From: Octopus vulgaris
Lineage: Eukaryota
Length of the DNA: 64,000 bases
Assembly (NCBI GenBank): GCA_951406725.2
Contig: OX597827.1
Coordinates: forward strand, 37,944,001-38,008,000
Direction: 5' to 3'
Below, one piece after another: positions 37,671-61,221 of this stretch (position 1 is the stretch's first letter; every line of letters starts with the position of its first letter). The position numbers and the translations under genes are program-made. The notes beneath the pieces are model-generated. The model made no database searches and had not been told where the DNA came from. It saw nothing but the letters and a program-made list of their open reading frames with translations.

Positions 37671-38056
37671 ATTGGTGACCCCGAGTAAAAAAAAAAAAAG
37701 AACAGAAGACGCAGCGAACAGGTTTTGCCAGTTAGCACACTGAACACTCAGTTTCATTATCATTTTCTTTTCCTTTCAGGACAGCGAAGGTGCGTACAAA
37801 CAAAAGTTTTATCCATCGCACTCAGTACACTGAAAAAAAACACACACACACACATTATTTTTTTTCTTTTCTGTAGCTTTTGTTTTTCCTTTGTGCACAC
37901 ACACACCTATTTCTTTACTACCCACGAGGTGCACACACACACACCAGTACACAAAACACGATTTTTTTTTTTTGGTTTGCTTTGTCGGTTCCACGTGTTC
38001 TCCACTTCTCGTTCTTACCTTCTGCCCCTTTCTGACAGGCGATTTTTCGGACAAAC

Positions 38057-38806
38057 ATGGCTGCATCAGGTTTGCCTTCATTCACAGGGGATGCGGGTCT
38101 GTGGCTTGCCCATGTGGAGTCGCATTTTGCCGCACATGCCGTTCCTCCACAGCAGCAGTTGCATCTGCTATATTCGAGTTTGCCTTCCCGACTCGCCACA
38201 TCGGTCAGGGATCTCATAATGAGTCCCCACCCTGACGCCACATACGCGCCAGTAAAAGCTGAAATCCTCCGCCGCAACACGCGGTCGGAGGAGAGTCAAT
38301 TTAATGAGCTGATGGCCGACGAACAGTTGGGGGACAGGACTCCATCCCAGTTCCTGCACCACCTAAGGGAGCTAAGCGGGAACGCAGCAGACGCACCACT
38401 CTTGCGGAAGATTTTCTTCTCCAGGTTGCCTGCCCACGTGCAGACAATGTTGGCCACGGCACTGGAGTCTGTGTCAGTAGACCAGATTGCCACGATGGCC
38501 GATAAAATATTAGAATTTTCGGGACCATCTCCATCGCGAGGCCTGTACGCATGTACAGAGCCCCCTCCGACATTTTCTCCGACGCAAAATTCTCTAGCCG
38601 AGAGGATCGATGCACTTACGCAGTGAATCAATGATCTGTGGCGTGCGATCGGGCGCCGACCTCGCAGTCGTAGTCGCAGTGGCTCTGTTTCTCGTAGTCG
38701 GAGTGACTCTGTTTCTCGTTCCGGCTGGTGCTGGTACCATTCCAAGTATGCCGAAAAGGCAGAACGGTGTACCCAGCCGTGCACTTTCCAGCCCTCGGGA
38801 AACTAA
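38057..38806 (+). pseudogene. gag: Gypsy gag with one premature stop (38624-38626)
   Basis: LPSFTGDAGLWLAHVESHF, LGDRTPSQFL, FFSRLP; same frame continues into an RS-rich tract and CWYHSKYAEKAERCTQPC knuckle, ending G GGA AAC TAA. Confidence 0.88.
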
Positions 38807-41800
38807 ATCAGGAGGAGGTGAGCACGTCACCTTCTTCTTTCTCGTTTCCCAAAAATCGTGCGTTCTTTGTAAAAGATCTTGTGTCGAAGAAATTCTTCAT
38901 GGTGGACACTGGCTCTTGTTGCAGCATCTGGCCCCTTCGTCTGACTGCAGACAAGCCCAAGCGCTCTTCAATTGTCTTGCATGCCATTGACTCGTCTCCC
39001 ATAACCACCTTCGGTCAGATTTCGCTGCGCCTCGACATCAACCTTCGTCGAGATTTTCAATGGGTTTTCGTCATCGCTGACATCCCGCATCCTATTCTCG
39101 GCGCTGATTTCTTGGATAGATTTAATCTATTGGTGGATGTCAGGCGTCGGAGGCTTCTTAACAGCACGACGTCGCTCTCGACGCCGACTGGGAGTTCCAC
39201 CAATGCGGTCCTTAGCCCGACATTCTTTGTTGCCACCTCTGGAGACGTTTTTCACTCTCTTTTGGCTTCATTTCCGGAGCTATTGGATATTGCCTTTCAA
39301 CCGGAAAAGCCTACCCACTCGACCCTTCATTTTATCACCACCACTGGGCCGCCTGTTTTTTCGCGCCCACGGCGCCTTGCGCCTGACCGTCTAAAACGGC
39401 TAGGGCGAGTTTGAGCACATGCTTCAACTTGGCCTTATACGCCCCTCCACCAGCCCATGGGCGTCTCCCCTTCATTTGGCGCGAAAGGGCGAGTCTGATT
39501 TTCGCCCGGTAGGAGACTATCGACGCCTCAATGCCGTAACAATAGCCGACAGGTATCCAATCAGAATTATACAGGACTTTACGGCAAATCTCCATGGTTG
39601 TACCATTTTTTCGAAGGTCGACCTTATACGCGCGTACCATCAAATACCGGTCAACCCAGCTGACGTTCCGAAAACTGCGATCACTACCCCTTTTGGGTGT
39701 TTTGAGTTTTTGTATATGAGTTTCGGTTTGCGGAATGCTACCAGCACTTTCCAGCGTTTCATTGATGAGGTTGTCCGCGGTCTTGATTTTGTGTTTGCCA
39801 ATGTCGATGATATACTCATTCCGAGCGACACACGTGAAAATCATCTCCAGCACCTTTCTCAGTTTTTTCAGCGTCTTCGCGCTTATAGTATACGTATAAA
39901 TCCCGACAAGTGTGTTTTCGGACGCTCTTCTCTAGATTTTCTAGGCCATCATATTGATTCGAGTGGAATCAGCCCTCTGTCGTCAAAGGTCGATGCCATT
40001 CAACGCATCGCACCCCCCACTTCCTTGCGCCAGCTCAGGCATTATCTAGGGATGATCAATTTTTACAGACGTTTTATTCCAGGTTGTGCAGATAAGCTAC
40101 TTCCTCTCACCAGGCTATTAAAGGACACTCTTAGAAAGGACGGTCAAGTCACCCTCTCTGTTGAGGCACTGACAGCCTTTGAGTCCAGTAAGGAGCTGGA
40201 TTCTGTTTCTTTGCTTGCACATCCGGTTCCTGGTGCTTCTCTCTCTTTGACTGTAGACGTATCGGACACTGCGATTGGCGCTGTGTTACAACATACAGTG
40301 GATGATCATATTCGACCTCTGGCTTTCTTTTCCCGCCAACTGCAACTAGCTGAACGACGATACAGCACCTTTGATCGTGAGCTCCTAGCAATCTATCTAT
40401 CGGTTCATCATTTCCAGCATCAACTTGAAGGGCGAGATTTTGTGATCTATACGGATCACAAGCCCCTTACGTTTGCCCTGTGTTCAAAAACGGACAAACT
40501 CTCACCTCGTGCTTTCCGGCACCTGGATTTTATCTCTCAATTTACTAGTAACATTCGACACATACCTGGAAAAGAGAACGTTCCTGCTGACGCTCTCTCT
40601 CGCCTTCTAGTCTGCGCCCTTTCGTCTCCTGCTGCTATCGACTTAAGTGCCATCTCGCAGGAGCAGCCACCTTTGGCGTCGTTAGACTTAACTTCTCCCA
40701 AGTTCTCCTGTTACCAGTTTTTCTACCCTCTGCTTCTGTCGGCCGAAGGCACCATTCTCGGTGATACTTCCACTGGTTCTCCCAGGCCACTCGTGCCTGA
40801 GAATCATCAACGCTCAGTGTTTGAAGCACTGCACTCCTTATCACATCCTGGCATCGCTGCCACCCTTAAGCTGATCACTGCTCGGTTTTTCTGGCCGAAT
40901 ATGCGTTGCACTATTACTTCTTGGACACGCACCTGCTCCAAGTGTCAACGGTCCAAGATTCAACGGCACGTTCGTGCCCCGCTTGGACATTCCCCCCTAC
41001 GGAGGCCCGTTTTCGCCATGTCCACATCGATCTGGTTGGACCATGGCCTGAGAGTCGAGAGTTTTCTTATCTGTTAACTTGTGTCGATCGTTTCTCCCGC
41101 TGGACAGAAGCCATTCCGATAGCAGACATTTCTACTGAGACTGTTGCGCGAGGCTTCGTTTCGAACTGGATTTCCCATTTCGGAGTTCCGTCCAGATTGA
41201 CTACAGATTGTGGACGTCAGTTTGAAGCTTCGCTATTTCGCGAATTGTCGCGCATTTTAGGTGTGCATCATATCCACACTACCAGCTATCATCCAGCGTC
41301 TAATGGATTAGTTGAACGGTTCCATAGACAGCTCAAGGCCGCTCTTCGTGCCTCTTCAGATCCACAGTCCTGGATTGAATTTCTGCCAATTGTGCTTCTC
41401 GGTTGTCGCACTGCTGTCAAGGCAGACCTGGGGTTTTCTTCTGCAGAGCTACTGTATGGTACCACTCTGGCATTGCCTGGTACGATGTTGGTGCCAGACA
41501 CTTCCCAGCCCCATGATCCGGCGACCTATGTCGCCAGACTGCGTTCCTATTTTTCGAATCTTCCACCCATGGTTCCCAGGAAACAATCTCCACCATCCCA
41601 TCTCTCACCGGATATGGACACTTGGTCGCATGTTTTTGTTCGGAACGACTCTGTCAAGGGACCACTTGTTTCTCCTTATAAAAGACCTTTCCGTGTGCTT
41701 TCTCGAACACCTAAGGTTTTCACCATTGAAATAAATGGTCATTCGGAGACTGTTTCCGTGGACCGACTGAAGAAAGCATACTTTGAGGCGTCTTCATCTT

Positions 41801-42009
41801 TTGATGACAACGTTGCCACACCCACCTATGCACCTTTAACAACACCTTCACCTGCACAAACACATTCACCTGCACAGACACCTTTGCCTTCACCGGCTCC
41901 CACAACACCACCTTCGCCGTCAACGGGTGCCCCGAGCACACCGTATGTTACAAGATCGGGCAGCACAGTGCATTGGCCAAAGAAACTCTCAAAGACAATT
42001 TATATTTGA
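38797..42009 (+). pseudogene. pol: Gypsy pol (protease, RT, RNase H, integrase) with frameshifts near 39408 and 40990
   Basis: VDTGS protease; SPWASP, DYRRLN, FGLRNA, NVDD (Y to N) RT; FFSRQL, RELLA, TDHKPL RNase H; HHCC, HIDLVGP, NGLVERFH integrase. Confidence 0.93.
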
Positions 42010-42147
42010 CTTTCTTTCTTTCAAATTTCTTGTTTTTTGTATTATATTGTGTACCAAATCTTCTGGGGGATCGGCAAGCCGTCTGTTTTTCTGCAGCACC
42101 ACTACAAATTTTCTTGTTTTCGTACTTCCGCACTCGAGGGGTAGCCA

Positions 42148-42579
42148 TGTAGTGATGCTGCTGTGTATGGTTCAGCGCGCATGCGCAGAATGGGATTACT
42201 TCCGGGTGGCCACCGGAAGTCTTCCCCATGCACATGTGCGGGAAACTGACCCCTAAAACACCGTCCACTCACTCAGTCTCTCTGGCCCTGGCAGCCCTCG
42301 TGAACAGACGCGCATTGGCAGTCTCTGAGAACTATGCACCGACTTAGCAGCGGACCACATCGAACCACTTCGACCAGCCAACAAGAAGCAGTACAACAGA
42401 TTCGGCTGTCGGTCCCCCTCAGAGATACGTACACCAGATCTACACTATCACGAGTAATAAAACAACATTTGCTGTCTTTCCCAGATAACCTGACTTCGTC
42501 TGTTATATTTAACTAAATTGAATGTGACGGGATCGGATCGGACACCCCTTCAGTGATACCGATTCCAGATCCTGTTACA
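42148..42579 (+). repeat. 3' LTR of nested Gypsy element
   Basis: Direct repeat of 37239-37670. Confidence 0.97.
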
Positions 42580-45500
42580 GCTTCTTTTCCAGAGCTACTT
42601 GATATTACCTTTAAAATGGCAAAACCCGTACACTCGACACTCCATTTTATTACAACTACTGGGCCGCCTGTTTTTTCGCGCCTACGGCGTCTTGCACCTG
42701 ACCGTCTTAAAACGGCTAGGGCTGAGTTTGAGCATATGCCCCAGCTTGGTCTGATACGCCCATCCCCCAGTCCATGGGCTTCACCCCTTCATTTAGTTCG
42801 AAAAGGGGATACAGATTTTCGTCCGGTGGGAGATTATCCGCGTCTAAATTCAGGACAGATATCCAATTATGAATCTCAATGACTTTTCAGCAAATCTCCA
42901 TGGCTGTACCATTTTTTCTAAGGTTGACCTCATACGTGCTTATCATCAAATACCGGTCAACCCAGACGATGTTCCTAAAACGGCAATTACCACTCCTTTC
43001 GGTTGTTTCGAATTTCTATACATGAGTTTTGGTTTGCGGAACGCCTGTAGTACGCTCCAACGTTTTATAGATGAAGTTGTTCGTGGACTTGATTTTGTTT
43101 TCGCGTATGTCGATGATATTCTCATCGAAAGTGATACACATGAAAATCATCTCCAGCACTTGTCTAAGCTTTTTCAGCGTCTTCGCGACTATGGTGTTCG
43201 CATTAATCCAGACAAGTTTTTTGGGGGGCAATCATCTCTTGATTTTCTCGGTCATTATATTGATTCGAGTAGAATCAAACCACTCTCGTCTAAAGTCGAT
43301 GCAATTCAGCGCATCGCACCACCTTCTTCTTTGCGTCAACTTCGCCATTTTTTGGGTATAGTTAATTTCTATCGACACTTCATAAACCGGTGTGCGGACA
43401 AGTTGTTTCCTTTAACGCAGATGCTAAAGGGCAATTCTAAAAAGGACGCCCGTCTTACTCTTTCAGCTGAAGCACTGTCTGCCTTTGAGTTAGTTAAAAA
43501 GGAACTAGCTTCAGTTCCTGTTTTAGCACATCCGGCTCCTGATGCTCCACTTACTTTATCTGTGGACGCATCAGATTCTGCAGTTGGCGCTGTCTTGCAG
43601 CACACCATAGATGGTGAAACTAAACCTTTGGCTTTCTTTTCTTGCCAGCTAATTGGATTTCTAGGTATGGTGTACCGTCCAGTTTAACCACAGATCGTGG
43701 TCGAGAATTCGAAGCGGTTTTATTTCGTGAGTAATCACGAATCCTGGGATGTATCATATACGCACCACTAGTTACCATCCCGCTTCTAATGGGATGGTGG
43801 AGCGTTTCCACAGGCAACTTAAGGCCGCGTTGCGTGCCTCGCCGAATCCACAGTCGTGGACTGAATTTCTTCCTATCGTCCTGCTTGAATGTCGGACAGC
43901 GATTAAAACAGACCTTGGTTTTTCTTCTGCCGAGCTCTTGTATGGTACCACTCTGGCATTGCCTGGTACGATGTTGGTGCCAGACAAGTCACAGTTTCTT
44001 AATTTAGAGTCTTATGTTGCTCGACTACGCAGATATTTTTCTGCCCTTCCTCCTATGGGCCCTCGACACCAAAATCCTCCTTCTAATGTGCCATCAGATC
44101 TTGATTCTTGGACGCATGTTTTTGTTCGTGATGATTCTGTCAAAGGACCTCTTGTTTCTCCTTATAAAGGACCTTTTCGTGTGATTTCCCGCACGCCGAA
44201 AGTGTTTAAACTTGACATTAACGGTCGTAGATCGTCTTAAAAGGGCATATTTTGAGGTGTCCACATCTTTTGATGACCCCACTTCCACAACCATCGTTGA
44301 ACCTTCACATGCACCTTTGACAACACCACCATTCACACATGCACCTTTGACAACACCACCATTTACACATGCACCTTTATCAACACCAACATCGTCGTCG
44401 CAGCCCGCATCGAACAAACCTTATGTTACGAGGTCAGGCAGAACTGTTCACTGGCCAAAGAAACTTTCAAAGACGATTTATATTTAACATTCTCAATTGA
44501 CTTCCCAGTGACAGTTACGATACTAATTGAATTTTGTTCATTTGAGTATTATTTTTTCTTTTCTTTTGCTGCATGCTTGTTTATATTATGGATTTTTTTT
44601 TGTTTTAATTTGTCATATTGTGTGCCATTTTGGTGATTTGGTATCCACCTTATATTCTGAAGCCACTACAGGGAATTTTGTTTCGTGCTTCCGCACTCGA
44701 GGGGGAGCCTTTGTAGTGACGTCATATTCCAGTGTGCGCACACGCAACATCATTCTTCAGTGTGCGTGTGCGGAACATCCTTCTTCAGTGTGCTTGTGCG
44801 GGATTGGAACCTTCTGGAAAGGCATAAGGAAGTTCCCTCATGCACATGCGCTAGAGACAATAAGAAATTCTATCGCGTTCCTTAATAGCGTCGGGGACTT
44901 GAGACACGGCGATAGAAGATAAAGGACGTATTTTTAAACGTTTGATCAGCCTATTCTCCTATCCCAGACACTTAGGATTTAACCTGTTCTATTGCTGCTG
45001 AATTGTTGTCAGAAGCTTTTACAAACGTTAGAATTCAGCCTTGCTGTGTTGAACTAGGTGGATACTAGTTATACCATCGTGTTCCATTGTTGAAACAGAG
45101 AATAAAGAATTGTATATATTTTTAAACTTGCGTTTCGTTCCTGACTGGTAGTTTCTAGAAACAAAAGAAAGGAAATTGTGTTGCACCCAAGTTGCACCCC
45201 AAAAGTGTAAAGAAGCAACCAGTTCCCTTTACAGATCTATACAAACTAAAAATGTGTGAACTAGCTAACAGCGAATGAAGTCTAGATTAGGATTCTGCAG
45301 TGTGAATATTTTTACATCTGTTTAGTTGACTTTTGGGGGTTGAGAGTGGACACCAGTCCTCTCCTCAATTTAGCACGCTTTTTATCAGTGAACAGGTCTT
45401 AATCGCAATCCATGGGTCCACTGTTGTTATAGTTGTGTAATATCTTTAGTCAGTATTTAAAACTAATCTTAAATAATTTACTTCCATAAAACGAAAGATC

Positions 45501-46836
45501 ACCAGCATCTGTGTTAAACCAAAACAAGTTAAAAAATTGATCCAATTAGCACTGTTGACTTCTTATTTATGTGTTATTGTTTACACAAATTCCGACTTTT
45601 TACACTCTACTTTCAAATTCTGTTGAGGTGAGTTTTAGTTATCCACCTCCGGGGTTGGTCGATGAAATAAGTACCAGCGAAGGTATCGATTAACCCCTTT
45701 TCCCTCAAAATTGCTAGCCTTGAACCTACATTTAGTATGTATATTACCGTTAATGTACAGAACGGTTTAGCCCCTGTCAAGGCATTCCATCTCGTCTTCA
45801 ATTCGGTGTTTCTATGATTATATTACCTTGTGTAGCCTTCCTGTTTGAAGACAGTAGAGATATTTGACGGAGATTTGACTGGTAACCAGACTAATGAATC
45901 CTTGGCATCGAGGGAAAAAATGTTTCCAGGTCTGTGGATGGCAGAAATTAAATTCAAATCTTGCTTCCCCCCCCCCATCCTTTGATTCTGTTGGGGGTGG
46001 GGTAATAAAAGACATTCTATGTGAACTGAGACTAAACAACCACCAGGTTGAAACCCAAAGCACAAGTGCCAACATGAACTATTGTTTTTAAAATCTGATT
46101 GTCATACCAAGAATGTTTAGTTGATGACAATAGGCAATCAGTTACAGGCTGTCACCATCATCAATTTAGTTTTAAAGACCCACTCCAAATAACGTCTTTT
46201 GTATAAGCTAACAATATTCACTGTCAGTTGTCTTTATGAATTTTGCCCTTGTTAATTCTGATGTCTGTAATTCATTTAGCTATGTCATCTTACAAATAAT
46301 GTTTTCAATTTTATTTGTTATAATTTAAAATTTTCCAGTGTCATTTAATTTTCTGTTATTTACTTAATCTTATATAGATCTGATATCATCAGCCTTTTCT
46401 CATTCTTTCAGGGTATATAGAACAAAAAGAATTTATAAATTCTTTCATTCTTGTGTGGTGAAATTATTCGAGCTTGGTTCTACAATTTGTGAACCTACTT
46501 GTTAGTTTCTACTTAGTTTATACAACTCTCCTTATGTCCATTTTTAATGTTTTTCTGCTTCCAGATAAGGTTGGAAGAAAGGTGCATTGCTCCAAACACT
46601 ACAAGAACAAGATAAGAATTCTCAACTCTCTGGCCCCAAAAGTTGTCATTATCTGTCCACTGGATCATTGCAGCTTCCCTCAAACATGTTTATCCTTTGA
46701 AAGATACAGTACAGCTTGTAGTATGCTGGTAAGAGCTAAGCAGTCTGAAAAACACGCCCTGTATTTAGACACCCACACATTTCCCGTTTTATTTCTAGGA
46801 AACCGTTAACTGTTGCAGATATTGTTCTATTTTTAG

Positions 46837-46982
46837 ATGACATCAGTGTTAGTTGCTGGCCTCTTAAGACGCCCGACCAGTATTTTAAATACACTCAAGC
46901 CTGCTTGCTGCTTAGATAATTTTATCGTCATGCCTTTCTATGCTGTGAAAAAAGGACATGCACCCGGGGTATATGAGACATG
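46837..46982 (+). CDS. RNASEH1: Ribonuclease H1 first coding exon (second copy or displaced exon), putative mitochondrial leader plus HBD start
   Basis: MTSVLVAGLLRRPTSILNTLKPACCLDNFIV-MPFYAVKKGHAPGVYET(W) TG|gtgaga; FYAVxxGxxxGVxxxW is the HBD N-terminal motif; phase-2 end fits exon 2 at 2294 (TG+G = Trp). Confidence 0.9.
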
Positions 46983-47145
46983 GTGAGACAATATTATTAT
47001 TAATAATTATTTGCACATAATTTGCCATTAATAGCCGACGAGAATGTATCGTAGCTCTCCACTCCGATATTCGAAACTTTGAGTACTATAATGACAACCT
47101 TTTACTGTTTGTTCTAAATTATAATATATATATATATATATAATT

Positions 47146-47234
47146 GGGCTTAGTAAAATAAATTACTTTGCCACATACTGAACTCATTAGAAATAGCAGC
47201 TAAAAAAACTTTTTTAAAACTATTTCTAATACTT
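47146..47234 (+). repeat. Fragment of the 565-bp array unit, next to a (TA)n tract
   Basis: gggcttagtaaaataaattactttgccacatactgaactcattagaaatag...ctatttctaatactt matches 55181-55269. Confidence 0.85.
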
Positions 47235-47469
47235 TCAAAACCTTTGCGGTTTCATTTATTATTTATATCCCATAAACGTGTAAATAATGAAATTATGCTT
47301 GGCATTATTCTGACTTTTGGCGGACTTTTCCAAAACTCAGTCGGACTTTACTGCCACTTAAACACCGGTAGATTTCCGAAACAACGGAGATCAACAGGCG
47401 AGTGAAGTGGTGTCGAGATTCCATTTGTTTTCTAGTCTGTCAAATTTTCTTATACTGATGGTAAAAGAC

Positions 47470-47780
47470 CAGCGCATGGCTCAGTGGTTAGAGCGTCGAG
47501 CTTACGATCGTGAGGTTGTGAGCTCGAATCTCGGACCGAGCTGCGTGTTGTGTTCTCGTGCAAGGCACTTTATTTCACGTTGCTCCAGTTCACTCAGCTG
47601 TAGAAATGAGTTGCGACGTCACTGGTGCCAAGCTGTATCGACCTTTGTCTTTCTCTTGGATAACACTGGTGGCGTGGAGAGGGGAGGCTGGTATGCATGG
47701 GCGACTGCTGGCCTTCCATAAAAACAACCTTGCCCAGACTTGTGTCTAGGAGGGTAACTTTCTAGGTGCAATCCCATGAT
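47470..47780 (+). mobile_element. tRNA-derived SINE of a second family
   Basis: A-box TGGCTCAGTGG, B-box-like GCTCGAATC, followed by tgtgttctcgtgcaaggcactttatttcac body. Confidence 0.75.
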
Positions 47781-47782
47781 TT

Positions 47783-48573
47783 TCTTCACCCGTTAGCCAA
47801 AAAAAAAAAAACTCACCTGCTGGGTGTTAACAACTGTGTAGAAAACGAATATGAGAAAAAAAAAATTTGCGCAAACGAACCGGCGGGTGGGGACAGGACT
47901 TTCGGAAAATTCACAAGATCCGATTTTTCGTCAACTTTGGGGAAAATGTATATATATTGATTTTTTTTTTTACTAGATCCAGTCCCATATTTTTGGTTAT
48001 GGAGGATCCGATTCTGAAATTTTTTTTTTTTCAAAACTTCAATTCAGACAAAACAACCGTTAATTTTCAGTGGGGAACTTTGGGTCGCAGTTTTTCATAA
48101 AAATTTGAATTTGTGTTTATTTTTTCCATATTCTTCATCTCCGTACTTTCCCACATAGATTGATTGAAAAAAAACTTTAATTTCATATTACTGCGGGAAA
48201 TTAATCTGAAAGAAATTTTTACAGGAAGGCGAGTGGATCGATTATATATTTCTTTCATTATGTTACCGAAGTTTTGTGAGATTTGGCTCTTATTTCTAGC
48301 ATGCTTGAAGGCCAAGGCCGGAGAATAGAGATTTTGAAAATGCGATTTTTGAAATTTTCTTTGCAGAATCGGATCCTCCATAACCAAAAATAAAACCGTA
48401 AAAAAAAAATCGAAATATATATCTATTTTCCCGAAAGTTATGATGGAAAAATCAGATCTTGTGAATTTTCCGAAAGTGCTCTCCCCCACACCCTTGATCA
48501 TTTGCACAATTTTTTTTCTCATATTCGTTTTCTACACAGTTGGTTTATTTTTGTTTTTGTTAACGGGTGAAGA
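47783..48573. mobile_element. Non-autonomous DNA transposon/MITE with long imperfect inverted arms
   Basis: Outer IR tcttcacccgtta / taacgggtgaaga; inner arms about 47831-48015 and 48364-48542; TSD not resolved. Confidence 0.8.
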
Positions 48574-49133
48574 TCTTTATATTAACACTTTTATGTGTCC
48601 TTACACTGATGGACACCCTCTATTCTCCAATATAGTACTATGTAAGATTCTTTTGTTACATGCCTGGTCCTTTTACTGTTCTTGCCAGTTGGTTTTCTTA
48701 CTGTTGTCGACAGAACAAATTTCAGAATATTCAGTGTTACCTACCAACTATATTTTGCAACTATTGTTATTGAAACCACTGGTATTTGTGAGCAAATAAC
48801 AAAAAGGGAAAAAATAATAAATCCTGGAAACCCTTATTCTAATTACAAAGCACATGGCTCTGTGAAAACCCTTTACCAAATTACATTGTTGCAGACAATT
48901 CTGTTACAGTCTCGTCTCCGCTATCATTTGAAATGCCCCTTTTGTTAAAAACAAAATTACTATGCACGTATATTTTATGCCAACTGTTCATATATGACAA
49001 TGGAATTATTTTAAACATTTAGGCTGCAGTGACGAGTGGTTATTTACCTAAATTTAGGGATAAGTTAGTTAAAAGTTAGCTCTACAACAACGTGGGCTCG
49101 GAGTTTATACATAAAACCTTAAATTTTCAAAAA

Positions 49134-50205
49134 TGTTTCAGCCCGAAAGCTGCAGCCATGCTAGGGCACTACCGTTGAATGTACTACACTAGTATGTGAA
49201 ACCACCTCTGATACGTGGCACTTGCTCAACAAGTTCGACGCTCCTGCTGAGAGGTAGGTTCATCTGGAACCCCTGACAAGAAGAGATCGAGTTTAGTTTT
49301 AAAGAAACCCACATCCACACCATGCAGGTCTCTGAGGCATTTAGGAAAAATATTGAAGAGCTGTGGTCCCCTGAAACCCAAGCTGTTGCAGTATCTGGTC
49401 CTGTATTTTGATGGTGATGTTGGGATTTTTTTTTAGCCCCATGAAGTGGCGCCCTGCTCTGCTGTTGGGGTAACTTTCAATGACAAAATTCGGGACAAGG
49501 CCCTCCAGGATTTTCCAGATGTATATCACTGAATATCTCTCCTACCTTCGCTCCAGGGAGAAGAGTTTTAATACTTTCATGTCAGGGCCCAGGTCATGCA
49601 CTGATTTTGACTCAGGAATTGCAGTTCTTCCTGGGCCAGTGTATCCAGTTTGCATGTTCAGCTTTGTGTGCAGGTAGCGCAGGGCTTGGAACTTTCCTGT
49701 TGTTGTCCTCAGCCAACCTGTATATTGTATCCAACTCCTGTTGCAGATGTGCAGATGTGCAATATTTCCAGGGTTTTGTATTGTCTGAGAGAGTTTTGTG
49801 TCATCTGCATAGCTAGCAAGGGTGGCCATCTTAGCAACTGAGGGCATGGCTGAAAGGGCCACTATGAACAGCAGTGGCCCCAAGACAGTGCCCTGTGGAA
49901 CAACACTTGTTATTTGTGTTTCCTTGGAGGTGGCTCCATTGGCCATCACTGCCTGCCTTCTAACTTTTAGGAAGTTGTACAGCCATTCTCCAAGATTTCT
50001 GCCTATGCCGAGATCATGCAGTTTGTGACAGATCATGCCATGGTTGACTTTATCAGAGGCTTTTGCAAAGTCAAGATATATCACATTCACACTCGAGTCA
50101 TTTAGTAGCTGTTTTAACACTGTCATAGTGTTGCAGGAGCTGTGTTAGACAGCTTCTACCTGGTCAAAATCCATGGTGGGTGTCAGTCAGCAAGTCATTT
50201 TCTTC
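49134..50205 (-). mobile_element. CR1-like LINE 3' fragment with internal deletion
   Basis: IYLDFAKASDKVNH, VPQGTVLGPLLF, YADDTK, FSLERR, IYIWKILEGLVPN; 3' stem-loop cagctttcgggctgaaac. Confidence 0.88.
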
Positions 50206-50246
50206 AAGGAACATGCATATATGTATATGCATATATATACATATGC

Positions 50247-50301
<55 letters not shown>

Positions 50302-50383
50302 GGTCCCGGGTTGAGTCGGGGTTAACCACAGTAAATAAGGTACTCAATACATAGCACAGTAAATTAATTTATTATATAGAGGG

Positions 50384-50434
50384 AGCTTCTACAGGACTAG
50401 AACTGTTTCATTCAAAAGAAATCATCAGGAAGCT
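50384..50434 (-). ncRNA. Type I hammerhead ribozyme motif within a Penelope-like repeat (about 50300-50640)
   Basis: AGCUUC-CUGAUGA-U-UUC(UUUU)GAA-U-GAAA-CAG(UUCUAGUC)CUG-UA-GAAGCU: intact core, 6-bp stem I, GUA cleavage triplet. Confidence 0.8.
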
Positions 50435-50667
50435 AGTTGACAAGAGTTGTTTTGGCATTTATACATTTAGGCAGGTTTAAAGGGGTGGTGGCGGGGGACT
50501 TTTTGGGGGTAGGCATAGCGCAAACTATCATTCTTAGGGGAGTGGTCAAAGGAATCGGTGGTAAAGTAGATAAAAGAATAAATAAAAGTATAAAAGAATA
50601 AATAGAAAAATAGAGTTTTAGGTAAATAAGGAGACTCTCACTTATACACATACATACATATATACAC

Positions 50668-50724
<57 letters not shown>

Positions 50725-51944
50725 CATATATGCACACACATGTCCATATACACACACATACACGCTTGTCCTGGCGTGTCTCTGGATCATGTCAACAGGG
50801 TGCAAAGGATCAGTAAGGGGTCAGCCAAGCCTTATTGGATTTAAAATTCTAGGTTGTACAATCGCTAGGTAAGTGTCATTTACGATACTTGGTCAATTAG
50901 GTGTGCCCTGCGGCATGCATGAAGGCCACAGCTGCGAATCTGAATAAAGCTGACCATGAACACAATACTACTTAGAACTGTCCTTGCAGAAATTTCACAT
51001 GGTAGATGGTCATTGATGGCCTTTTTTACTCATGAGTGGATAACCATCGTCATCTTCACCATATATACATACACGAAAAATTCATGTTTACATATATACA
51101 TAACTACAAACAATCATACATACACGTATAAATCCAAACATAGGTATACACACACACACATATGTGTGCAAACGTAAACAACAACATACTTAAATACAAA
51201 TACAACTGTACACATACACCCACGTACATTCATACACATGTATTTATATCCGTATATATGTACATATACATAGCTATCTGCGTACCTGCCATTTCTTACA
51301 CAATGAAACACACATTCAAATGCTGACTCACTATTTCTTTTCTTTAACAATTCTAAAATATCTCAATTTATTGTCATTGAATTTCTTATCCCTATTCAAA
51401 TCTTAGGTCAACCTTTTCCGTCAATTTAGAAACACGTATGTATGAATGTATGTGGGTGTATGTATTTAGAAAAAATAGGTAAGACCGAAATATGTATACG
51501 CTCACACCTATCCATCAATTCATCTATCTGTCTATACATACATGCATATACTCATATATACATATATATATAAATTGAATGTATATACATATAAGTATAT
51601 AATTAGGGGATATGTTAACCTTGTGAAGGGATGGTTGCATTCAAGGAAACACTGGTATTTTGGGGCAATGAAATACCTTTAAAACAATAGGTATATATTA
51701 AGAATATAGTTTATATCCATTTCAAAAAAGAAAAGAAAATGGAGATAAGGAAGTTGATAGTTGTTTATTGCTTACAAAGTGGTCATCTTCGCTGCTTACA
51801 ATTGTTTCAATAAATTAATTTACAAATTTGTACATTAATATTGCATTTATGTGACATGAGTATAATTTCATCAGAGAAAAAAAGCTGCTCCTTTTGATGT
51901 TATATATGGACCCATCTTCTTTTTTCCTTTTAAATGGATATAAA

Positions 51945-52060
<116 letters not shown>

Positions 52061-52124
52061 GTATGTATATATATATATATGTGTGTGTGTGTATGTATAT
52101 GTATATATCTGTACATGTCTCTCA

Positions 52125-52462
52125 TTGGACACTAAACTTCGCTTGCGAGGACCTGTTGAGGCAAGTGAAATCAAATTCGTTGAGATGACCGATGATAGCA
52201 CCGCCTGACTGGCAACCACACCAGTGGAATACTAAAAGCACCATCCAAGCATGAACGTTGCCAGTACCGCTGTACTGGCTCCTGTTCAGGTGGCATGTAA
52301 AAAACACCATTTGAGTGTGGCTATTGGCAGTACCACATGACTGGCTCTCGTGCCAGTGGCACATAAAAGCACCCATTACACTCTTGGAGTGGTAGGTGTT
52401 AGGAGGGCATCCAGCGGTAGAAACCCTACCTGTTCAGATAGGAGCCTGGTGCAGCCTTCTGG
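52125..52462 (+). mobile_element. RTE 3' UTR fragment
   Basis: Matches about 28740-29260 of the long RTE. Confidence 0.8.
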
Positions 52463-52469
52463 GCAGGAT

Positions 52470-54120
52470 CTTCCAGAGATATATTTCTGCATACCTCTCC
52501 CGTCTTCTCTCCAGGGAGTAGAGTCTTAAGTGTTTCAAACTTTCCCAGTAGCTGAGCTGTTACAAAGAGACGATCTTCTTTGTGAATCTTCTCTGGATTG
52601 CTTCAAGGTCCACTGTTAATTTCACACTGGTGGGTGACCGTAGCTGTGAGCAATAATCTAGGCGACTGAGGACGAATGTCTGCTAGTGGACCATCATGGT
52701 TTCCTTATCTCTGGTTCGGAATGTTCTTAGGATCCATCCAGCCAGTCGTCTGCACTTTGTCGCCATCCTGGTAATGAGCACTTGGAAAGAGGTATCATCA
52801 CTCATGTCTATACCCAGGTCCCTCACTGACTTAGGCTCTGGGGTTGAAATTCCCTGTGGACCAGTGTACCCTGTAAGTTAGGTTTTGATGCTGGTGGCGC
52901 AGGGCTTGGAATTTTTTGGCATTAACCCTTTCGTTACCAAACCGCCCAAAGCCGCCCGAAAAAATTTTGGTTAATGTGACCAAACAGCCCAAAGCCGCCC
53001 CAAAAAATTTTGGTTAATGTGACCAAACCACCCAAAGCTGCCCGAATTTGCCTATTCATATTTAAATGAGAATATCAGAGCAAATCTCTTTCGTACATTC
53101 ATGAAAACACGTAATTATACTTCGTAAACAGTTCATCTACAGTTTTGTACAAAGATCGACGTGTAATTTTAATTCCCTGAATTTTGGGAGATTTTTTTCC
53201 ACATTTTTTTCGAAATGGATTGGAGTTTCATGTTATCAAGCATTGATTCTGATTTGGAAAATTTGTGAAGCAAATACTGGGTACTGTTGTGGATTTAGAT
53301 TTTATACAGGGAAACTAATGTTAGTCAGCATGGCTTAGGGTATGATGTGGTCTGGAAGTTATTGTTTGAAGCGATCAATGCGGAAACAAACTTACGTAAA
53401 ATGTAAACAAAGACAAAATGGGGGTTCAAATTTCGGAAAATTTTTGAAGCAAATACTGGGTACTGTTGTGGATTTAGTTTTTATACAGGGAAAATAATGT
53501 TAGTCATCATGGCCTAGGGAACGATGTGGTCTGGAATTTATCACTTCCATACCATAACCAGAGCCGTATATTATTTTTTGACCGATTTCTTTAGTTCGGT
53601 CAAACTTGCGGTGAATTCCAGTATTTCACTTTATTCCACCTTTATGGTACATCTGTTGTGCATTAAATTCAACTGATGATATAGTGATGTGCACAATACT
53701 TCTTTATCAAAATTTTGTTGCATACCCATTTGAATATTAGCTGATGATTCAGTTTCTATGGTGATGTTGAAACAAAATTTTAGTATTTTTACCTTTTGCT
53801 CAATTTAAAATTATAATATTTTTACCTTTTGCTCAATTTACCTCGATTTACCTGTAATTAAAGTCACTTTGAGACAAAAGTTATGCAATAGAATTAATTA
53901 AGAAACCTTTCTTTAATTATGTTCCAAATATTACATTAATATGTTGATAAGTAAAAAAGTTACAGTTATTTAATGAAACAAGTCTAGATTCATGATTATT
54001 TTAGAATTTAATTGAAACTCATGAGGGGTGTATTTTAGTCAGAAATATAGTAATGAAAGGGTTAAACTGCATATTATTATCCTCAGCCAATCTATAAATG
54101 GAGTCCAACTCCTGCTGCTT
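52470..54120 (-). mobile_element. CR1-like LINE fragment split by a piggyBac-type element
   Basis: LEAIQRRFTKKI, SYWESLKHLRLYSLERRRERY on the minus strand (52470-52921); similarity resumes at 54066-54120. Confidence 0.8.
52926..54061. mobile_element. Non-autonomous piggyBac-type element
   Basis: TTAA|CCCTTTCGTTAC ... GTAATGAAAGGG|TTAA; subterminal about 43-bp tandem repeats 52937-53045; internal about 105-bp direct repeat. Confidence 0.88.
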
Positions 54121-54138
54121 ATACATATACCTATAGAC

Positions 54139-54564
<426 letters not shown>

Positions 54565-54566
<2 letters not shown>

Positions 54567-55052
54567 TGTTTTATGATCTAAAATGCTCCAGCTAGGGCGT
54601 GGTTGAACAAATCTTACGAAATTGAACCATATTCATTATTGAATAGAAATCTAATCTGTTTCTCCTCTAAATATTTAACTTTCGAAGTAAAGCGGCAACG
54701 TGACTTAACTATGAAAATGAGAGGGAGAGACTAAGAGTGAGAGGGCGGGGAGGGAGGGAGAGGCAGACAGACAGGCAGAGGGTGGGTGCAATAAAGCATA
54801 GAGAGATATAACAACGCAACAACTAAAAAAATCGGACAATGCCTGTCTGTCTGCCTCTCCCTCCCTCCCCGCCCTCTCACTCTTAGTCTCTCCCTCTCAT
54901 TCTCATAGTTAAGTCACGTTGCCGCTTTACTTAGAAAGTTAAATATTTAGGGGAGAAAGAGATTAGATTTCTATTCAATAATGAATATGTTTCAATTTCG
55001 TAAGATTTGTTCAACCACGCCCTAGCTGGAGCATTTTAGTTCATAAAACATA
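54565..55052. mobile_element. Fold-back MITE: about 213-bp near-perfect inverted arms, 62-bp spacer, in (TA)n
   Basis: 54565-54777 is the reverse complement of 54840-55052 with few mismatches. Confidence 0.9.
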
Positions 55053-55357
55053 TATATATATATATATAATTTCAACAATTGAGGGTAAAATTAATTAATT
55101 AATTATTAATCAATTTCACCAAGTGTTCAGTATGTAAAGGGACCATTTAAGGCGAATTCAAATTATTACATTATATAAAAGGGCTTAGTAAAATAAATTA
55201 CTTTGCCACATACTGAACTCATTAGAAATAGTAGCTAAAAAAACTTTTTTAAAACTATTTCTAATACTTAAAGAAAATCTCTCATATAGTGTTTGCTCAA
55301 TTCAACTCACGAAAGTATGGGGGTAAAGACATTAAAAAATCAAATGCAAAGGTTATT

Positions 55358-55410
55358 TGAGAACGTACGTTTCAAGATTAGTCAAACTCGACATTTCTAT
55401 CATCAGCGCA
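55358..55410 (-). ncRNA. Minimal type I hammerhead motif, copy 1 (stem I mismatch)
   Basis: ugcg-CUGAUGA-stem II-GAAA-CGUACG-UU-cuca. Confidence 0.55.
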
Positions 55411-55924
55411 GAACTCCTTGATTTGGATTTGAAAACACTGAAAGTGGGAGCATACCCTTTCGGCTTCTTATCGCTTCTGAAGATCTGCTCGAAACTAACA
55501 GTGCCAGCACACCCAAAATATGCAAGCGAAGAATTTCTGCTCTCCCCTTTCCACCAGCGTGGGTTAAAATCAGCAAACACTATGCTTTTTCGGTAAATCC
55601 GTAACATTAAATAGAGAGAGATGAATTATAATTTCAACAATTGAGGGTAAAATTAATTAATTAATTATTAATCAATTTCACCAAGTGTTCAGTATGTAAA
55701 GGGACCATTTAAGGCGAATTCAAATTATTACATTATATAAAAGGGCTTAGTAAAATAAATTACTTTGCCACATACTGAACTCATTAGAAATAGTAGCTAA
55801 AAAAAAAAACTTTTTTAAAACTATTTCTAATACTTAAAGAAAATCTCTCTCATATAGTGTTTGCTCAATTCAACTCACGAAAGTATGGGGTAAAGACATT
55901 AAAAAATCAAATGCAAAAGTTATT

Positions 55925-55977
55925 TGAGAACGTACGTTTCAAGATTAGTCAAACTCGACATTTCTATCATCAGCTCA
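55925..55977 (-). ncRNA. Minimal type I hammerhead motif, copy 2
   Basis: ugag-CUGAUGA-U-AGA..GUC(GAGUUU)GAC..UCU-U-GAAA-CGUACG-UU-cuca. Confidence 0.65.
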
Positions 55978-56379
55978 GAACTCTTTGGTTTGGATTTGAA
56001 AACACTGAAAGTGGGAGCATACCCTTTCGGCTTCTTATCGCTTCTGAAGATCTGCTCGAAACTAACAGTGCCAGCACACCCAAAATATGCAAGCGAAGAA
56101 TTTCTGCTCTCCCCTTTCCACCAGCGTGGGTTAAAATCAGCAAACACTATGCTTTTTCGGTAAATCCGTAACATTAAATAGAGAGAGATGAATTATAATT
56201 TCAACAATTGAGGGTAAAATTAATTAATTAATTATTAATCAATTTCACCAAGTGTTCAGTATGTGTTCATATTTTGGGTGTGCTGGCACTGTTAGTTTCG
56301 AGCAGATCTTCAGAAGCGATAAGAAGCCGAAAGGGTATGCTCCCACTTTCAGTGTTTTCAAATCCAAACCAAGGAGTTC

Positions 56380-56432
56380 TGAGCTGATGATAGAAATGTC
56401 GAGTTTGACTAATCTTGAAACGTACGTTCTCA
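56380..56432 (+). ncRNA. Minimal type I hammerhead motif, copy 3
   Basis: CTGATGA 56384-56390, GAAA 56417-56420, palindrome AACGTACGTT, stem I tgag/ctca. Confidence 0.65.
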
Positions 56433-56944
56433 AATAACCTTTGCATTTGATTTTTTAATGTCTTTACCCCCATACTTTCGTGAGTTGAATTGAGCAAACA
56501 CTATATGAGAGAGATTTTCTTTAAGTATTAGAAATAGTTTTAAAAAAGTTCTTTTAGCTACTATTTCTAATGAGTTCAGTATGTGGCAAAGTAATTTATT
56601 TTACTAAGCCCCTTTTATATAATGTAATAATTTGAATTCGCCTTAAATGGTCCCTTTACATACTGAACACTTGGTGAAATTGATTAATAATTAATTAATT
56701 AATTTTACCCTCAATTGTGGAAATTATAATTCATCTCTCTCTATTTAATGTTACGGATTTAACGAAAAAGCATAGTGTTTGCTGATTTTAACCCACGCTG
56801 GTGGAAAGGGGAGAGCAGAAATTCTTCGCTTGCATATTTTGGGTGTGCTGGCACTGTTAGTTTCGAGCAGATCTTCAGAAGCGATAAGAAGCCGAAAGGG
56901 TATGCTCCCACTTTCAGTGTTTTCAAATCCAAACCAAGGAGTTC

Positions 56945-56997
56945 TGAGCTGATGATAGAAATGTCGAGTTTGACTAATCTTGAAACGTACGTTCTCA
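56945..56997 (+). ncRNA. Minimal type I hammerhead motif, copy 4
   Basis: Identical to copy 3, 565 bp downstream. Confidence 0.65.
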
Positions 56998-57180
56998 AAT
57001 AACCTTTGCATTTGATTTTTTAATGTCTTTACCCCCATACTTTCGTGAGTTGAATTGAGCAAACACTATATGAGAGAGATTTTCTTTAAGTATTAGAAAT
57101 AGTTTTAAAAAAGTTCTTTTAGCTACTATTTCTAATGAGTTCAGTATGTGGCAAAGTAATTTATTTTACTAAGCCCCTTT

Positions 57181-57244
<64 letters not shown>

Positions 57245-59426
57245 TCATCATCATCATCATCATCATTTAGCGTCCGTTTTCCATGCTAGCATGGGTTGGA
57301 CGGTTCTACTGGGGTCTGTGAAGCCGGAAGTCTGCATCAGGCCCAGTCAGATCTGGCAGTGTTTCTACGGCTGGATGCCCTTCCTAACGCCAACCACTCC
57401 GTGAGTGTAGTAGGTGCTTTTTACATGCCACCCGCACAGGTGCCAGACGGAGCTGGCAAACGGCCACGAACGGATGGTGCTTTTACGTGCCACTGGCACA
57501 GGGGCCGGGCGAGGCTGGCAATGGACATGAGCGGATGGTGCTTTTTACGTGCCACCGGCACGGGGGCCAGGCGAGGCTGGCAGCAGACACGAACGGAAGG
57601 TGCTTTTATGTGCCACCGGCACGGAGGCCAGTTGGGGCGGCGCCGGCAACGGCCACGATCGGATTGTTCGCTTAACCACAGCTGCAACTTCCACTGATGC
57701 TGATCGACCTCAATTTTGGTTCTGCTTTCTGATATCTGATTTGATTTGGTTTGATTTTCATTTTGATTTTGATTCTGACTGTTCTCATTGGTCTTGCCGG
57801 GTCTTCTCACGCACAGCATACTTCCAAAGGTCTCGGTTCCTTAGTGAGACCTAAAGTTCGAAGGTCGTGCTTCACCACCTCGTCCCAGGTTTTCCTGGGT
57901 CTACCTCTTCCACAGGTCCCCTCAACTGCCAGGGTGTGGCACTTTTTCACACCCCTATCTTCATCCATTCTCGCCACATGACCATACCAGCGCAATCGTC
58001 TCTCTTGCACACAACAACTGATGCTTCTTAGGTCCAACTTTTCTCTCAAGGTACTTACACTCTGTCGATTATGAACACTGACATTACACATCCATCGGAG
58101 CATACTAGCTTCATTTCTTGCGAGCTTACGCAAATCCTCAGCAGTCACAGCCCATGTTTCACTACCATGTAGCATGGCTGTACGTACACATGCATCATAC
58201 AGTCTGCCTTTTACTCTGAGCGAGAGGCCTTTTGTCACCAGCAGGGGTTAAGAGCTCTATAAACTTTGCCCAGGCTATTCTTGCTCTAGCAGTTACACTT
58301 TCAGCACACCCACCCCCGCTACTGACTTGGTCACCTAGGTAACGGAAGCTATCAACTACTTCTAGTTTTTCTCCCTGGAACGTGGTAGAAGTTGGTCTCT
58401 GCATATTTTCAGAGTTTATTGTTCCTGAGCATCTGCCACAGATAAAAACTATTTTCCTAGTTAGTCTTCCTTTGACATTACTACATCTCTTATGTGTCCA
58501 TAGCTTACATTTAGTGCATCTTATAGAGTTTCTACCTACGCCTTTTCTACAGATCAAGCAGGGCCATCTACCTGAAGGCGTTTGTGATTGGTCTACTTTC
58601 CTACATATTAGGACTTTGGTTTTGGCTAGGTTGATTCTAAGGCCCTTCGATTCTAAACCTTGCTTCCACACCTGAAACTTCTCCTCCAGTTCTGATAGAG
58701 ACTCAGCAATTAGAGCAAGGTCATCAGCATAGAGAAGCTCCCAGGGGCATCCTGTCTTGAATTCCTCCGTTATTGCCTGGAGGACTATGATAAATAGGAG
58801 GGGACTGAGGACTGAACCTTGGTGGACCCCAACCTCTACCCTGAATTCTTCACTGTACTCGATGCCAACCCTCACCTTGCTAGCAGCATCTCTGTACATG
58901 GCTTGTACAGCTCTCACTAACCATTCATCTATCCCTAGTTTCCTCATTGACCACCAGATAAGAGATCGGGGGACCCTGTCGAAGGCTTTCTCCATATCAA
59001 CAAAAGCCAGGTATTGGGGCTTGTCTTTGGCTAGGTATTTCTCCTGCAGCTGTCTTACCAGGAATATAGCATCAGTAGTATTTTTCCCTGGCACGAACCC
59101 AAACTGCATCTCATCTAAGCTAACTCTCTCTCTAATTAGTTGGGCTATAAACCTCTCCGTAACCTTCATTACCTGATCCAACAGCTTGATACCCCTGTAG
59201 TTATTTGTATCAAGGGCGTCACCTTTACCTTTGTAACAGTTGACTATTATGCTGCTACACCAGTCATTGGGTATGACTCCTTCGTGTATCACCTGGTTAA
59301 CTATACGAGTGACTAGGCTATAGCCGACACTACCAGATATTTTGAGCATCTCTGCAGTAATTCCTGATGGGCCTGGGGCTTTCCCTGTTTTCATGCTTGT
59401 AATTGCCTTAACTACTAAGGAACTGT
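57245..59426 (-). mobile_element. 5'-truncated, little-decayed RTE LINE (RT, PHD, C-terminus, 3' UTR, tail)
   Basis: ORF 58195-59541 holds the complete RT (QFGF, DMEKAFD, HQGSVLSPLLF, YADD, FRYLG); frameshift near 58245; (CAT)n at 57245-57266. Confidence 0.96.
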
Positions 59427-59491
59427 TCCTTTCTGATAGATTTTTTCCTCTTATCTGCATGATAAGAGGAAAAAATCTATCAGAAAGGAAC
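59425..59491. repeat. Perfect 31-bp inverted repeat with 5-nt loop
   Basis: gttcctttctgatagattttttcctcttatc-tgcat-gataagaggaaaaaatctatcagaaaggaac. Confidence 0.95.
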
Positions 59492-59936
59492 TCTAATCTC
59501 TCTTTAAAAAATATATTTTGATAAGCATAACAAATGCGCAACCGGAAAAAAGAACTTTCACCTAATTAAATTACTTAAATTACTTAAATTATTTTGTCAG
59601 CATTTTCTTCATTTCCTTTTTTATATATCACAACTCGTGTTCCACTTCTCCTTTTTTAAATATATATATATATATATATATATGATCGTTGTGGTCCTCA
59701 ATAAAGAGTCCTGTGAATTCCATTTTCTGTCTATTTTATATATATGAAAGCATTTGGTGGGGGGGGGGGGACATCTCTGAGCTCTGCCTATACTGTTTTA
59801 CATTTATTTACAATATATCCAGGTTTTCTGTTACATTGTAAGGTTTATTTGTTTTAGGTGGAATTGATATTTGTTGTCTCTAAGTAGGGTGTGGTTGGCT
59901 TTTGCAAACATTTCACATGAGTATAAATGGGTGTTA

Positions 59937-59989
<53 letters not shown>

Positions 59990-59992
<3 letters not shown>

Positions 59993-60155
59993 GCAGGAGT
60001 GGCTGTGTGGTAAGTAGCTTGCTAACCAACCACATGGTTCCAGGTTCAGTCCCACTGCGTGGCACTTTGGGCAAGTGTCTTCTGCTATAGCCCCGGGCCG
60101 ACCAATGTCTTGTGAGTGGATTTGGTAGACGGAAACTGAAAGAAGCCCATCGTAT
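59990..60155 (+). mobile_element. tRNA-derived SINE 5' half
   Basis: Matches 62615-62780. Confidence 0.85.
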
Positions 60156-60196: not shown

Positions 60197-61221
60197 TAGT
60201 AGTTGATAGCTTCTGTTACCTAGGTAACCAAGTCAGTAGTGGGGAGCGGGTGTGCTGAAAGTGTAACTACTAGAATAAGAATAGCCTGGGCAAAGTTCAG
60301 AGAACCCTTACCTCTGCTGGTGACAAAGGGCCTCTCACTCAGAGTAAAAGGCAGACTGTATGACGCATGTGTACAAACAGCCATACTACATGGCAGTGAA
60401 ACATGGGCCGTGACTGCTGAGGACATGCGTAAGCTCGCAAGGAATGAAGCCAGTATGCTCCGATGGATGTGTAATGTCAGTGTACATACTCGACAGAGTG
60501 TAAGTACCTTGAGAGAAAAGTTGGACCTAAGAAGCATCAGATGGGGTGTGCAAGAGAGACAATTGCGCTAGTATGGTCATGTAGCGAGAATGGATGAAGA
60601 TAGTTGTGTTAAAAAGTGCCACACCCTAGTGGTTGAGGGAATCTGTGGAAGAGGTAGACCCAGGAAAACCTGGGATGAGGTGGTAAAGCACGACCTTTGA
60701 ACATTAGGCCTCACCGTGGCAATGACTAGTGACTGAGACCTTTGGAAATATGCTGTGTGGGAGAAGACCCTGCAGGACAAATGAGACCATAACTCAAGGC
60801 CTTTATCAGGGATGTAGCCAGCCCACTTATGCATACCTTTCCTTCTTTGGACACTAAACTCTGCTTGCGAAGACCTGTTGAGGCAAGTGAAATCGAAATT
60901 GAACCAAATTCGATGACTGCCACCTGTGCCAGTGGAGCGCTAACAGCTCCATCCAAGCAAGATCACTGCCAGAGCAGCTGTCATGTTTCCGTGCCGGTGG
61001 GCACGTAAAAATCACCATTTGAGTGTGATCGTTACCTGCATTGCCTTACTGGCACATGAACAAAACATTCGAGCGAGGTCATTACCAGTGCCCCTGGACT
61101 GACTCCTGTGCAGGTGGCACATAAAAAACACCATTTCGAGTGTGGCCGTTGCCAGTACCGCCAGACTGGCCCTCGTGCTAGTGGCACGTAAAAGCACCCA
61201 CTACACTTTCGGAGTGGTTGG
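60197..61221 (+). mobile_element. RTE LINE 3' fragment
   Basis: RIRIAWAKFRE, LHGSETWAVT, RGRPRKTW; 3' UTR repeats; tail missing. Confidence 0.9.

Follow-up and report, generated by a model that had tools for sequence, protein, structure and literature searches.

In a 64,000-nucleotide window of Octopus vulgaris contig OX597827.1, a 565-bp non-coding unit builds two back-to-back arms of 2.13 and 1.63 units that read outward and carry four hammerhead ribozyme motifs. Judging from sequence, we favor, with somewhat better than even confidence, the reading that this array is an insertion of a non-autonomous hammerhead retrozyme mobilized by Penelope-like machinery through an RNA intermediate that was probably circular. 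The class assignment as such, which covers this reading together with one in which the template was an uncut linear multimer, is quite likely correct, and the element is a real and probably still selected hammerhead retroelement. The initial annotation, whose interpretation is partly supported, had proposed a retrozyme or Penelope-driven RNA element, a class to which the anatomy of the array, its high copy number, and variation sparing the core and the sense-strand structure lend support.

The array, previously placed at 55066 to 57187, was found to extend from 55065 to about 57188, and the arms meet at 56265-56267, in agreement with an inversion point proposed near 56265 (Table 1). The 5' end of the left arm corresponds to unit position 56658. 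Start-to-start spacing of the units was 565 in the right arm and 562 and 567 in the left arm, unit-to-unit identity was 98-100%, and the GC content of the unit was 0.336. Head-to-tail joins between units are seamless, and the arms go round the unit twice. The right-arm units have no differences across their overlap, and the left-arm units differ from each other by four substitutions and three indels. At the junction of the arms, the extra bases restore a 7-nt word found 10 nt upstream, from which we infer slippage or microhomology joining. The 3' ends of the left arm, the right arm, and a separate piece near 47 kb all merge into (TA)n. That piece had been taken as evidence of dispersal at 47146-47234; it was confirmed and is slightly longer, and it bears alleles other than those of the right arm. 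Both flanks of the array are (TA)n, inside which a target-site duplication is unreadable, and no LTR-type layout was visible in the array. A 520-bp palindrome (54549-55068; 229-bp arms with seven mismatches and a 62-bp spacer) directly adjoins the array and lies between (TA)n runs. It occurs once in the window, contains no hammerhead core, and could represent a MITE or a further retro-insertion of the head-to-head kind.

Table 1. Coordinates of the array, its hammerhead motifs, and related features (positions in the window)
Feature	Position	Strand	Remarks
Separate 5'-truncated 100-bp insertion, same family	47135..47234	-	95% identity; ends at site A in (TA)n
(TA)n target, left flank	55051..55068	.	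shared by the end of the neighboring palindrome
Left arm	55065..56264	-	1200 bp, 2.13 units; 3' end is site B
Hammerhead motif 1	55358..55410 (core 55362-55406)	-	core intact; stem I pair broken at 55408
Hammerhead motif 2	55925..55977 (core 55929-55973)	-	intact
Junction of the two 5' ends	56265..56267	.	three extra bases
Right arm	56268..57188 (end approximate)	+	1.63 units; 3' end is site A
Hammerhead motif 3	56380..56432 (core 56384-56428)	+	type I; predicted cut after 56428
Predicted monomer, 565 nt between cut sites	56429..56993	+	folding z -6.7 linear, -7.9 circular
Site A	56616..56623	+	longest TA run of the unit, mostly unpaired
Site B	56725..56728	+	4-nt TA run, about 107 nt 3' of site A
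Hammerhead motif 4	56945..56997 (core 56949-56993)	+	intact; predicted cut after 56993
(TA)n target, right flank	57181..57242	.	

The unit is ORF-less, as first described: its longest ATG frames encode 21 aa on the ribozyme strand and 95 aa on the antisense strand, and a Pfam scan of seven of seven unit frames gave 0 families. No RT or GIY-YIG ORF lies within the array, which at this locus is not an autonomous element, and GIY-YIG was absent among the 16 window frames scanned; the window's other retroelements have ordinary RT or AP-endonuclease domains. Retroelement copies and remnants were seen at 25516-27531, 57807-59565, 38036-44240, and 49542-50144, and consist of a LINE in two copies that carry AP-endonuclease or RT domains, two remnants of Gypsy-like LTR retrotransposons, and an additional fragment with RT. 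We take the two-copy LINE to be RTE-like. Dispersed tandem repeats of 61-67 bp (17801-18070, 28888-29168, 57413-57631, and 61050-61193) form one SINE-like family, and several of them adjoin (ATG/CAT)n or (TA)n runs. The ribozyme strand of the 565-bp unit has ten T runs of four or more, which argues against an RNA polymerase III promoter. Two 7-of-8 matches to the octamer motif are no proof of a promoter. The AUG of the ribozyme core starts a 16-codon frame across the ribozyme (56387-56434), possibly a vestige or a chance occurrence; the ORF of Anolis Poseidon begins in stem II.

All four hammerhead cores were found exactly where the initial annotation had put them, on the same strands, and the core pattern had 0 matches in 100 dinucleotide shuffles. 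A stricter descriptor, requiring a 4-bp stem I and a palindromic helix III, matched three of the four motifs and had 0 matches in 100 block-shuffled windows. The four copies are one repeated motif and not four independent observations. The change to UGCG noticed in stem I of copy 1 lies at 55408, and the predicted cut positions, after 56428 and 56993, were correct. When 45000-60000 was compared with Rfam, 98 matches had E ≤ 1; every one scored under the gathering threshold, and no hammerhead was among them.

The motif has a type I layout with a stem I of 4 bp and the triplet GUU. Helix II is composed of a U·U, 3 bp, a 3x3 internal loop, a further 3 bp, and a variable loop, and helix III has one pair beyond A15.1-U16.1 and a palindromic tetraloop. 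The 10-nt helix III sequence is self-complementary. Stem III had been described as palindromic and unstable in the monomer, and energy predictions agreed, with closure of helix III in the monomer costing +1.4 kcal/mol and the dimer duplex, which comprises 8 pairs of the active dimer, reaching -9.8 kcal/mol. The motif MFE of -7.1 kcal/mol is under the cut-off of -5 used in a recent preprint (bioRxiv 10.64898/2026.07.22.740005), and the MFE structure is not exactly the active fold. In predicted folds, the active helices are just 4-15% populated, and an alternative helix competes with them. The fold z of the monomer on the ribozyme strand was about -7.0 linear (-6.7 in a second run) and -7.9 circular, compared with -5.1 and -4.3 for the antisense monomer (60 shuffles each), and no shuffle folded as well as the monomer (0/100 and 0/60).

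A GUU triplet cleaves less well than GUC. Published hammerhead data describe a consensus in which H17 can be U and name U10.1-U11.1 as the best tolerated mismatch at 10.1-11.1 (PMC3088659). The minimal hammerhead consensus of Penelope-like elements has a G10.1-C11.1 pair following an extra nucleotide at 9/10.1 (PMC4209133). The motifs do not fit this consensus, since 10.1-11.1 is U·U in the window, whereas other members of the family have U-A or, probably, A·A. The palindromic 15.2-16.2 plus loop 3 and the helix I of 4-5 bp that also characterize the minimal Penelope type are both present.

The ribozyme-unit stretch was present in 20 of 24 listed runs, covering eight studies and four organism labels. 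In four runs, 9802, 4653, 3085, and 1946 contigs matched the unit, mostly 90-100% alike, and these thousands of varied contigs per run indicate that the family is abundant and varied; read depth was not accepted as a measure of copy number. Among the listed runs holding the unit, none was an RNA run. X8 and X9, which were guessed to be RNA runs and gave 73 and 15 ribozyme-region contigs, were not taken as evidence of expression, and none of the pieces listed for them spanned the cut site by 31 bases on each side.

Two variant tables combined gave 19 listed variable positions in the 91-nt ribozyme stretch; the tables are incomplete, one holding 40 of 59 rows and the other omitting 56358, 56372, and 56464. 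The 12 fixed core positions contained none of the 19 (P=0.049), and neither did the 18 that make up core plus helix III (P=0.009); the variants come from related subfamilies, so these P values are optimistic and indicative only. A lack of excess core conservation, named in the initial annotation as evidence against a ribozyme, was therefore not what these 18 positions displayed. N7, which can be U, C, or A, was the sole varying core position among the variants listed. The invariant stretch extends beyond the core to 56441, and all three listed changes in active helices preserve pairing. In the loose ends of divergent contigs, both core boxes are kept and the length of loop II varies. One divergent X8 contig seemingly has U-A for C-G in distal helix II (a single loose end). 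A distal extension of helix I is not supported, two of four listed variants breaking it; the alternative blocker helix is broken by two of five.

Outside the ribozyme, 4 of the 36 listed variants break a confident sense-strand pair compared with 10.0 expected (P=0.005, likewise optimistic and indicative only), and in the antisense control 8 listed variants break pairs compared with 8.4 expected, that is, no effect. The scarcity of pair-breaking changes on the sense strand, and the lack of such an effect on the antisense strand, points to selection on RNA structure. The listed changes at 56538 and 56560 hit one pair and would be compensatory if they occur together. Among listed variants, A>G plus C>U changes numbered 24 and U>C plus G>A changes 13 (P=0.03); RNA editing is not claimed because the direction of change cannot be read.

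Other relatives were also seen. Contigs of 630 nt in X1 and X3, about 87% alike, of low depth and under two organism labels, represent an old copy that is without 56360-56437 (the entire hammerhead) and skips 56616-56769. Loose ends in X8, X9, and X1 belong to a divergent subfamily in which N7 is C, 10.1 and probably 11.1 are A, loop II is longer, and stem I may reach 6 bp. A specific ribozyme pattern had 0 matches in metagenome contigs. A looser pattern matched 4 viral and 68 metagenome loci, near the rough chance estimate of tens; only four of these loci had three or more pairs in stem I, BLAST showed no resemblance to the unit in any, and an ORF check of 16 picked loci found nothing notable. 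Nine metagenome loci (L009, L017, L018, L030, L035, L039, L055, L060, and L066) have related hammerhead-like motifs with a U after A9 and the identical palindromic tetraloop; they are possibly host DNA, and no ORF longer than 165 aa was found in them.

The 3' ends of the insertions provided information on how the copies were made. The right arm (at 57181-57188) and the 47-kb piece both terminate 3' at site A, and the left arm (at 55065-55068) terminates 3' at site B. All three ends fall in TA runs, of which the unit has four short ones covering 19 of its 565 positions; the ends use two of the four, and two separate insertions share one. From these ends, we propose that short homology between the (TA)n end and UAUA may guide priming. 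Sites A and B lie 190 and 300 nt 3' of the ribozyme cut. Each arm traverses two intact cut sites, so the template would have been a ligated circle or an uncut multimer. In public contigs, 24 joints were found in total, and 7 of the 15 listed run from antisense to sense, after 2 hairpin-variant, 4 sense-to-sense, and 2 opposite-strand joints had been left out before counting. We read the antisense-to-sense joints as further head-to-head insertions; their contigs are short (20-28 nt on the shorter side) and lie beside a near-palindrome. No enrichment of inverted junctions near site B is claimed, since the listing began at 20 bases for joints on one strand and at 31 for joints between opposite strands. 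One joint begins 1-2 nt past the predicted cut, with a 6% chance of coincidence, and is a lead only. The share of contigs continuing into unlike sequence was 0 in four runs, where contigs are short.

The arms differ at four sites. At two of these, 56551 and 56609, which are covered twice per arm, the units agree within an arm and the arms disagree. The right arm's allele at 56551 is scarce throughout the four runs, making up about 0.1% of the depth in X1 and being nearly absent from X5, and both arms have an uncommon haplotype at 56751-56753. The arm-specific alleles suggest two RNA templates, and the simplest reading would be two RNA molecules from closely related sources; this concerns one locus and two sites, one of which is a homopolymer indel. 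At the left-arm rate of difference, identical right-arm units have P=0.08, and later homogenization of the right arm is possible.

We compared the unit with known systems. Like the metazoan non-LTR retrozymes of coral, mussel, and axolotl described in PMC7229834, it is non-coding, repeats in tandem with a single type I hammerhead per unit, has a GC content under 50%, and has a highly self-paired predicted monomer. Individual irregularities of the ribozyme also occur in that group: axolotl HHR_Amex2 has U·U at the base of helix II, HHR_Amex1 has a one-pair helix III with a palindromic tetraloop, and in some mussel circles the ribozyme is predicted to be partly blocked (PMC7229834). Axolotl retrozymes with the U·U or with the one-pair helix III, each separately, cleave as dimers (PMC7229834). 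Of the features by which retrozymes are recognized, those compared here are present: the right arm has two consecutive intact type I motifs and the unit has the appropriate lack of coding capacity, GC content, self-pairing, unit length, and dispersal. Its 565 nt exceed the range of 150-450 bp given for non-LTR retrozymes in PMC7229834 and fall within the 51-972 bp given for retrozymes in the 2026 preprint (bioRxiv 10.64898/2026.07.22.740005). It differs from retrozymes in the 3x3 internal loop and distal hairpin of helix II, in the GUU triplet, and in head-to-head arms in (TA)n, an arrangement undescribed in the portions of these two sources that we used. In that preprint, one of nine predicted Xenopus retrozyme dimers cleaved in vitro.

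Resemblances to Penelope-like elements were equally specific. The unit shares with the hammerheads of Penelope pseudo-LTRs a 4-bp helix I, a long helix II, a palindromic helix III predicted to require a dimer, and close opposite-strand pairs, and differs from them in the lack of G10.1-C11.1, in its interrupted helix II, and in having no RT/GIY-YIG ORF attached within the window (PMC4209133). Dimeric cleavage is known to rest on a palindromic helix III of this kind, stable only as a dimer (PMC4209133). Insertions of endonuclease-positive Penelope-like elements (Naiad, Neptune, and Poseidon) likewise have partial tandems, an inverted 5'-truncated arm, and a (TA)n target, and (TA)n is listed as the target of Octopus Naiad families; Naiads, unlike the 565-bp unit, are without canonical hammerheads in the account of PMC8557442. 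At AT-rich DNA, the Penelope-like protein of Anolis Poseidon acts on both strands, which it cuts and extends, and it initiates internally at two sites 3' of the hammerhead; in vitro, in the one Penelope-like system to have been reconstituted, hammerhead cleavage was not needed and priming proceeded without homology (PMC11167929). Three ends of the 565-bp unit point to two internal 3' end sites downstream of its hammerhead, about 107 nt apart as opposed to 30-40 nt in Penelope-type insertions, and these ends match short TA homology to the target.

The retrozyme class and its Penelope origin are already published (PMC7229834; bioRxiv 10.64898/2026.07.22.740005), and the 565-bp unit is likely a new family. 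Retrozymes have been presented as non-autonomous Penelope derivatives in 31 vertebrates, 3 insects, and 1 anthozoan (bioRxiv 10.64898/2026.07.22.740005). We found no cephalopod retrozyme in our literature searches. The repeat paper on Octopus vulgaris describes 30 recently active Penelope families, and the word 'ribozyme' is absent from it and its supplement. Two short motifs of the unit were absent from the PMC8557442 supplement.

Four other explanations of the array were weighed against a circular intermediate. An appreciable possibility is Penelope-type insertion without a circle, the template being an uncut linear multimer transcribed from a tandem source locus and the hammerhead cutting seldom, or only when assisted by protein, as that of Anolis Poseidon does. 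The weak ribozyme features and low predicted folding fit such a template, as do the use of unprocessed RNA by Anolis Poseidon, whose hammerhead needs protein (PMC11167929), and the four substitutions and three indels between left-arm units, which could equally have separated units of a multimer. Against it, the presence of the rare 56551 allele in both right-arm units is explained simply by a circle, the conserved core implies a role for cleavage at some stage, and one joint begins just past the cut site, though with a 6% chance of coincidence. A further alternative, that an autonomous Penelope-like element has the unit as its pseudo-LTR, with the array made of its clustered 5'-truncated ends and no separate non-autonomous family involved, is unlikely. 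Xenopus retrozymes are indeed homologous to pseudo-LTRs (bioRxiv 10.64898/2026.07.22.740005), and truncated Penelope-like elements have opposite-strand hammerhead pairs 100-700 bp apart (PMC4209133). However, the head-to-tail units are seamless and the arms circle the unit twice, the contigs of the four runs, short as they are, never run into unlike sequence, and structure-preserving variation covers the whole unit and not the ribozyme alone.

We regard as very unlikely a satellite formed at the DNA level by unequal crossover and fold-back repair, with the ribozyme a dead relic. Local amplification of pseudo-LTR-derived satellites has been proposed (bioRxiv 10.64898/2026.07.22.740005), and recent duplication would also yield identical right-arm units, but dispersed 5'-truncated copies share 3' ends in (TA)n, the conservation of pairing is strand-specific, and the arms, differing at four sites, are not mirror copies. 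An assembly artefact, a false inversion or duplication of one unit, is scarcely credible: arm- and unit-specific differences, a junction with three extra bases, and other inverted junctions in public contigs all speak against it, although none of the contigs listed spans the array and Penelope-type structures do trouble assemblies (PMC8557442).

Under the favored reading, a retrozyme moved by Penelope-like machinery, read-through transcripts of two or more units would be cut slowly as dimeric hammerheads, since helix III gains stability only when two copies pair. The released 565-nt monomers would be circularized by a host RtcB-type ligase, as in mussel and axolotl retrozymes. A Penelope-like GIY-YIG endonuclease would cut both (TA)n strands, and each cut 3' end would pair with a UAUA run in the RNA (site A or B) and prime reverse transcription. 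The arms would be copied from two RNA molecules, and short-homology repair would link the two cDNAs where their 5' ends are truncated.

A more detailed version, which we put forward tentatively and consider rather doubtful, is that every insertion of this kind reflects two circles reverse-transcribed at once from the two ends of one (TA)n break, each end priming at one of two UAUA sites in the circle, that their cDNAs fused at the 5' ends, and that the hammerhead is of a new, tuned-down type. The tuning would lie in the free 10.1-11.1 pair, the 3x3 purine loop in helix II, and the fixed GUU, and the alternative helix would keep the ribozyme off in the circle so that it cuts only in tandem RNA. 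Both the copying of retrozymes into the genome and the origin of Penelope tandem and inverted structures have been proposed in print and not shown (PMC7229834, PMC8557442, and PMC11167929). If true, the two-circle version would provide evidence from a genome that Penelope transposition can be rolling-circle, double-ended, and homology-assisted. Both processes become testable on genome data and with one in vitro template in a family that is young and abundant and has defined end sites and arm-specific variants, and its ribozyme variant offers a natural trial of how far helix II and the cleaved triplet can stray from the consensus.
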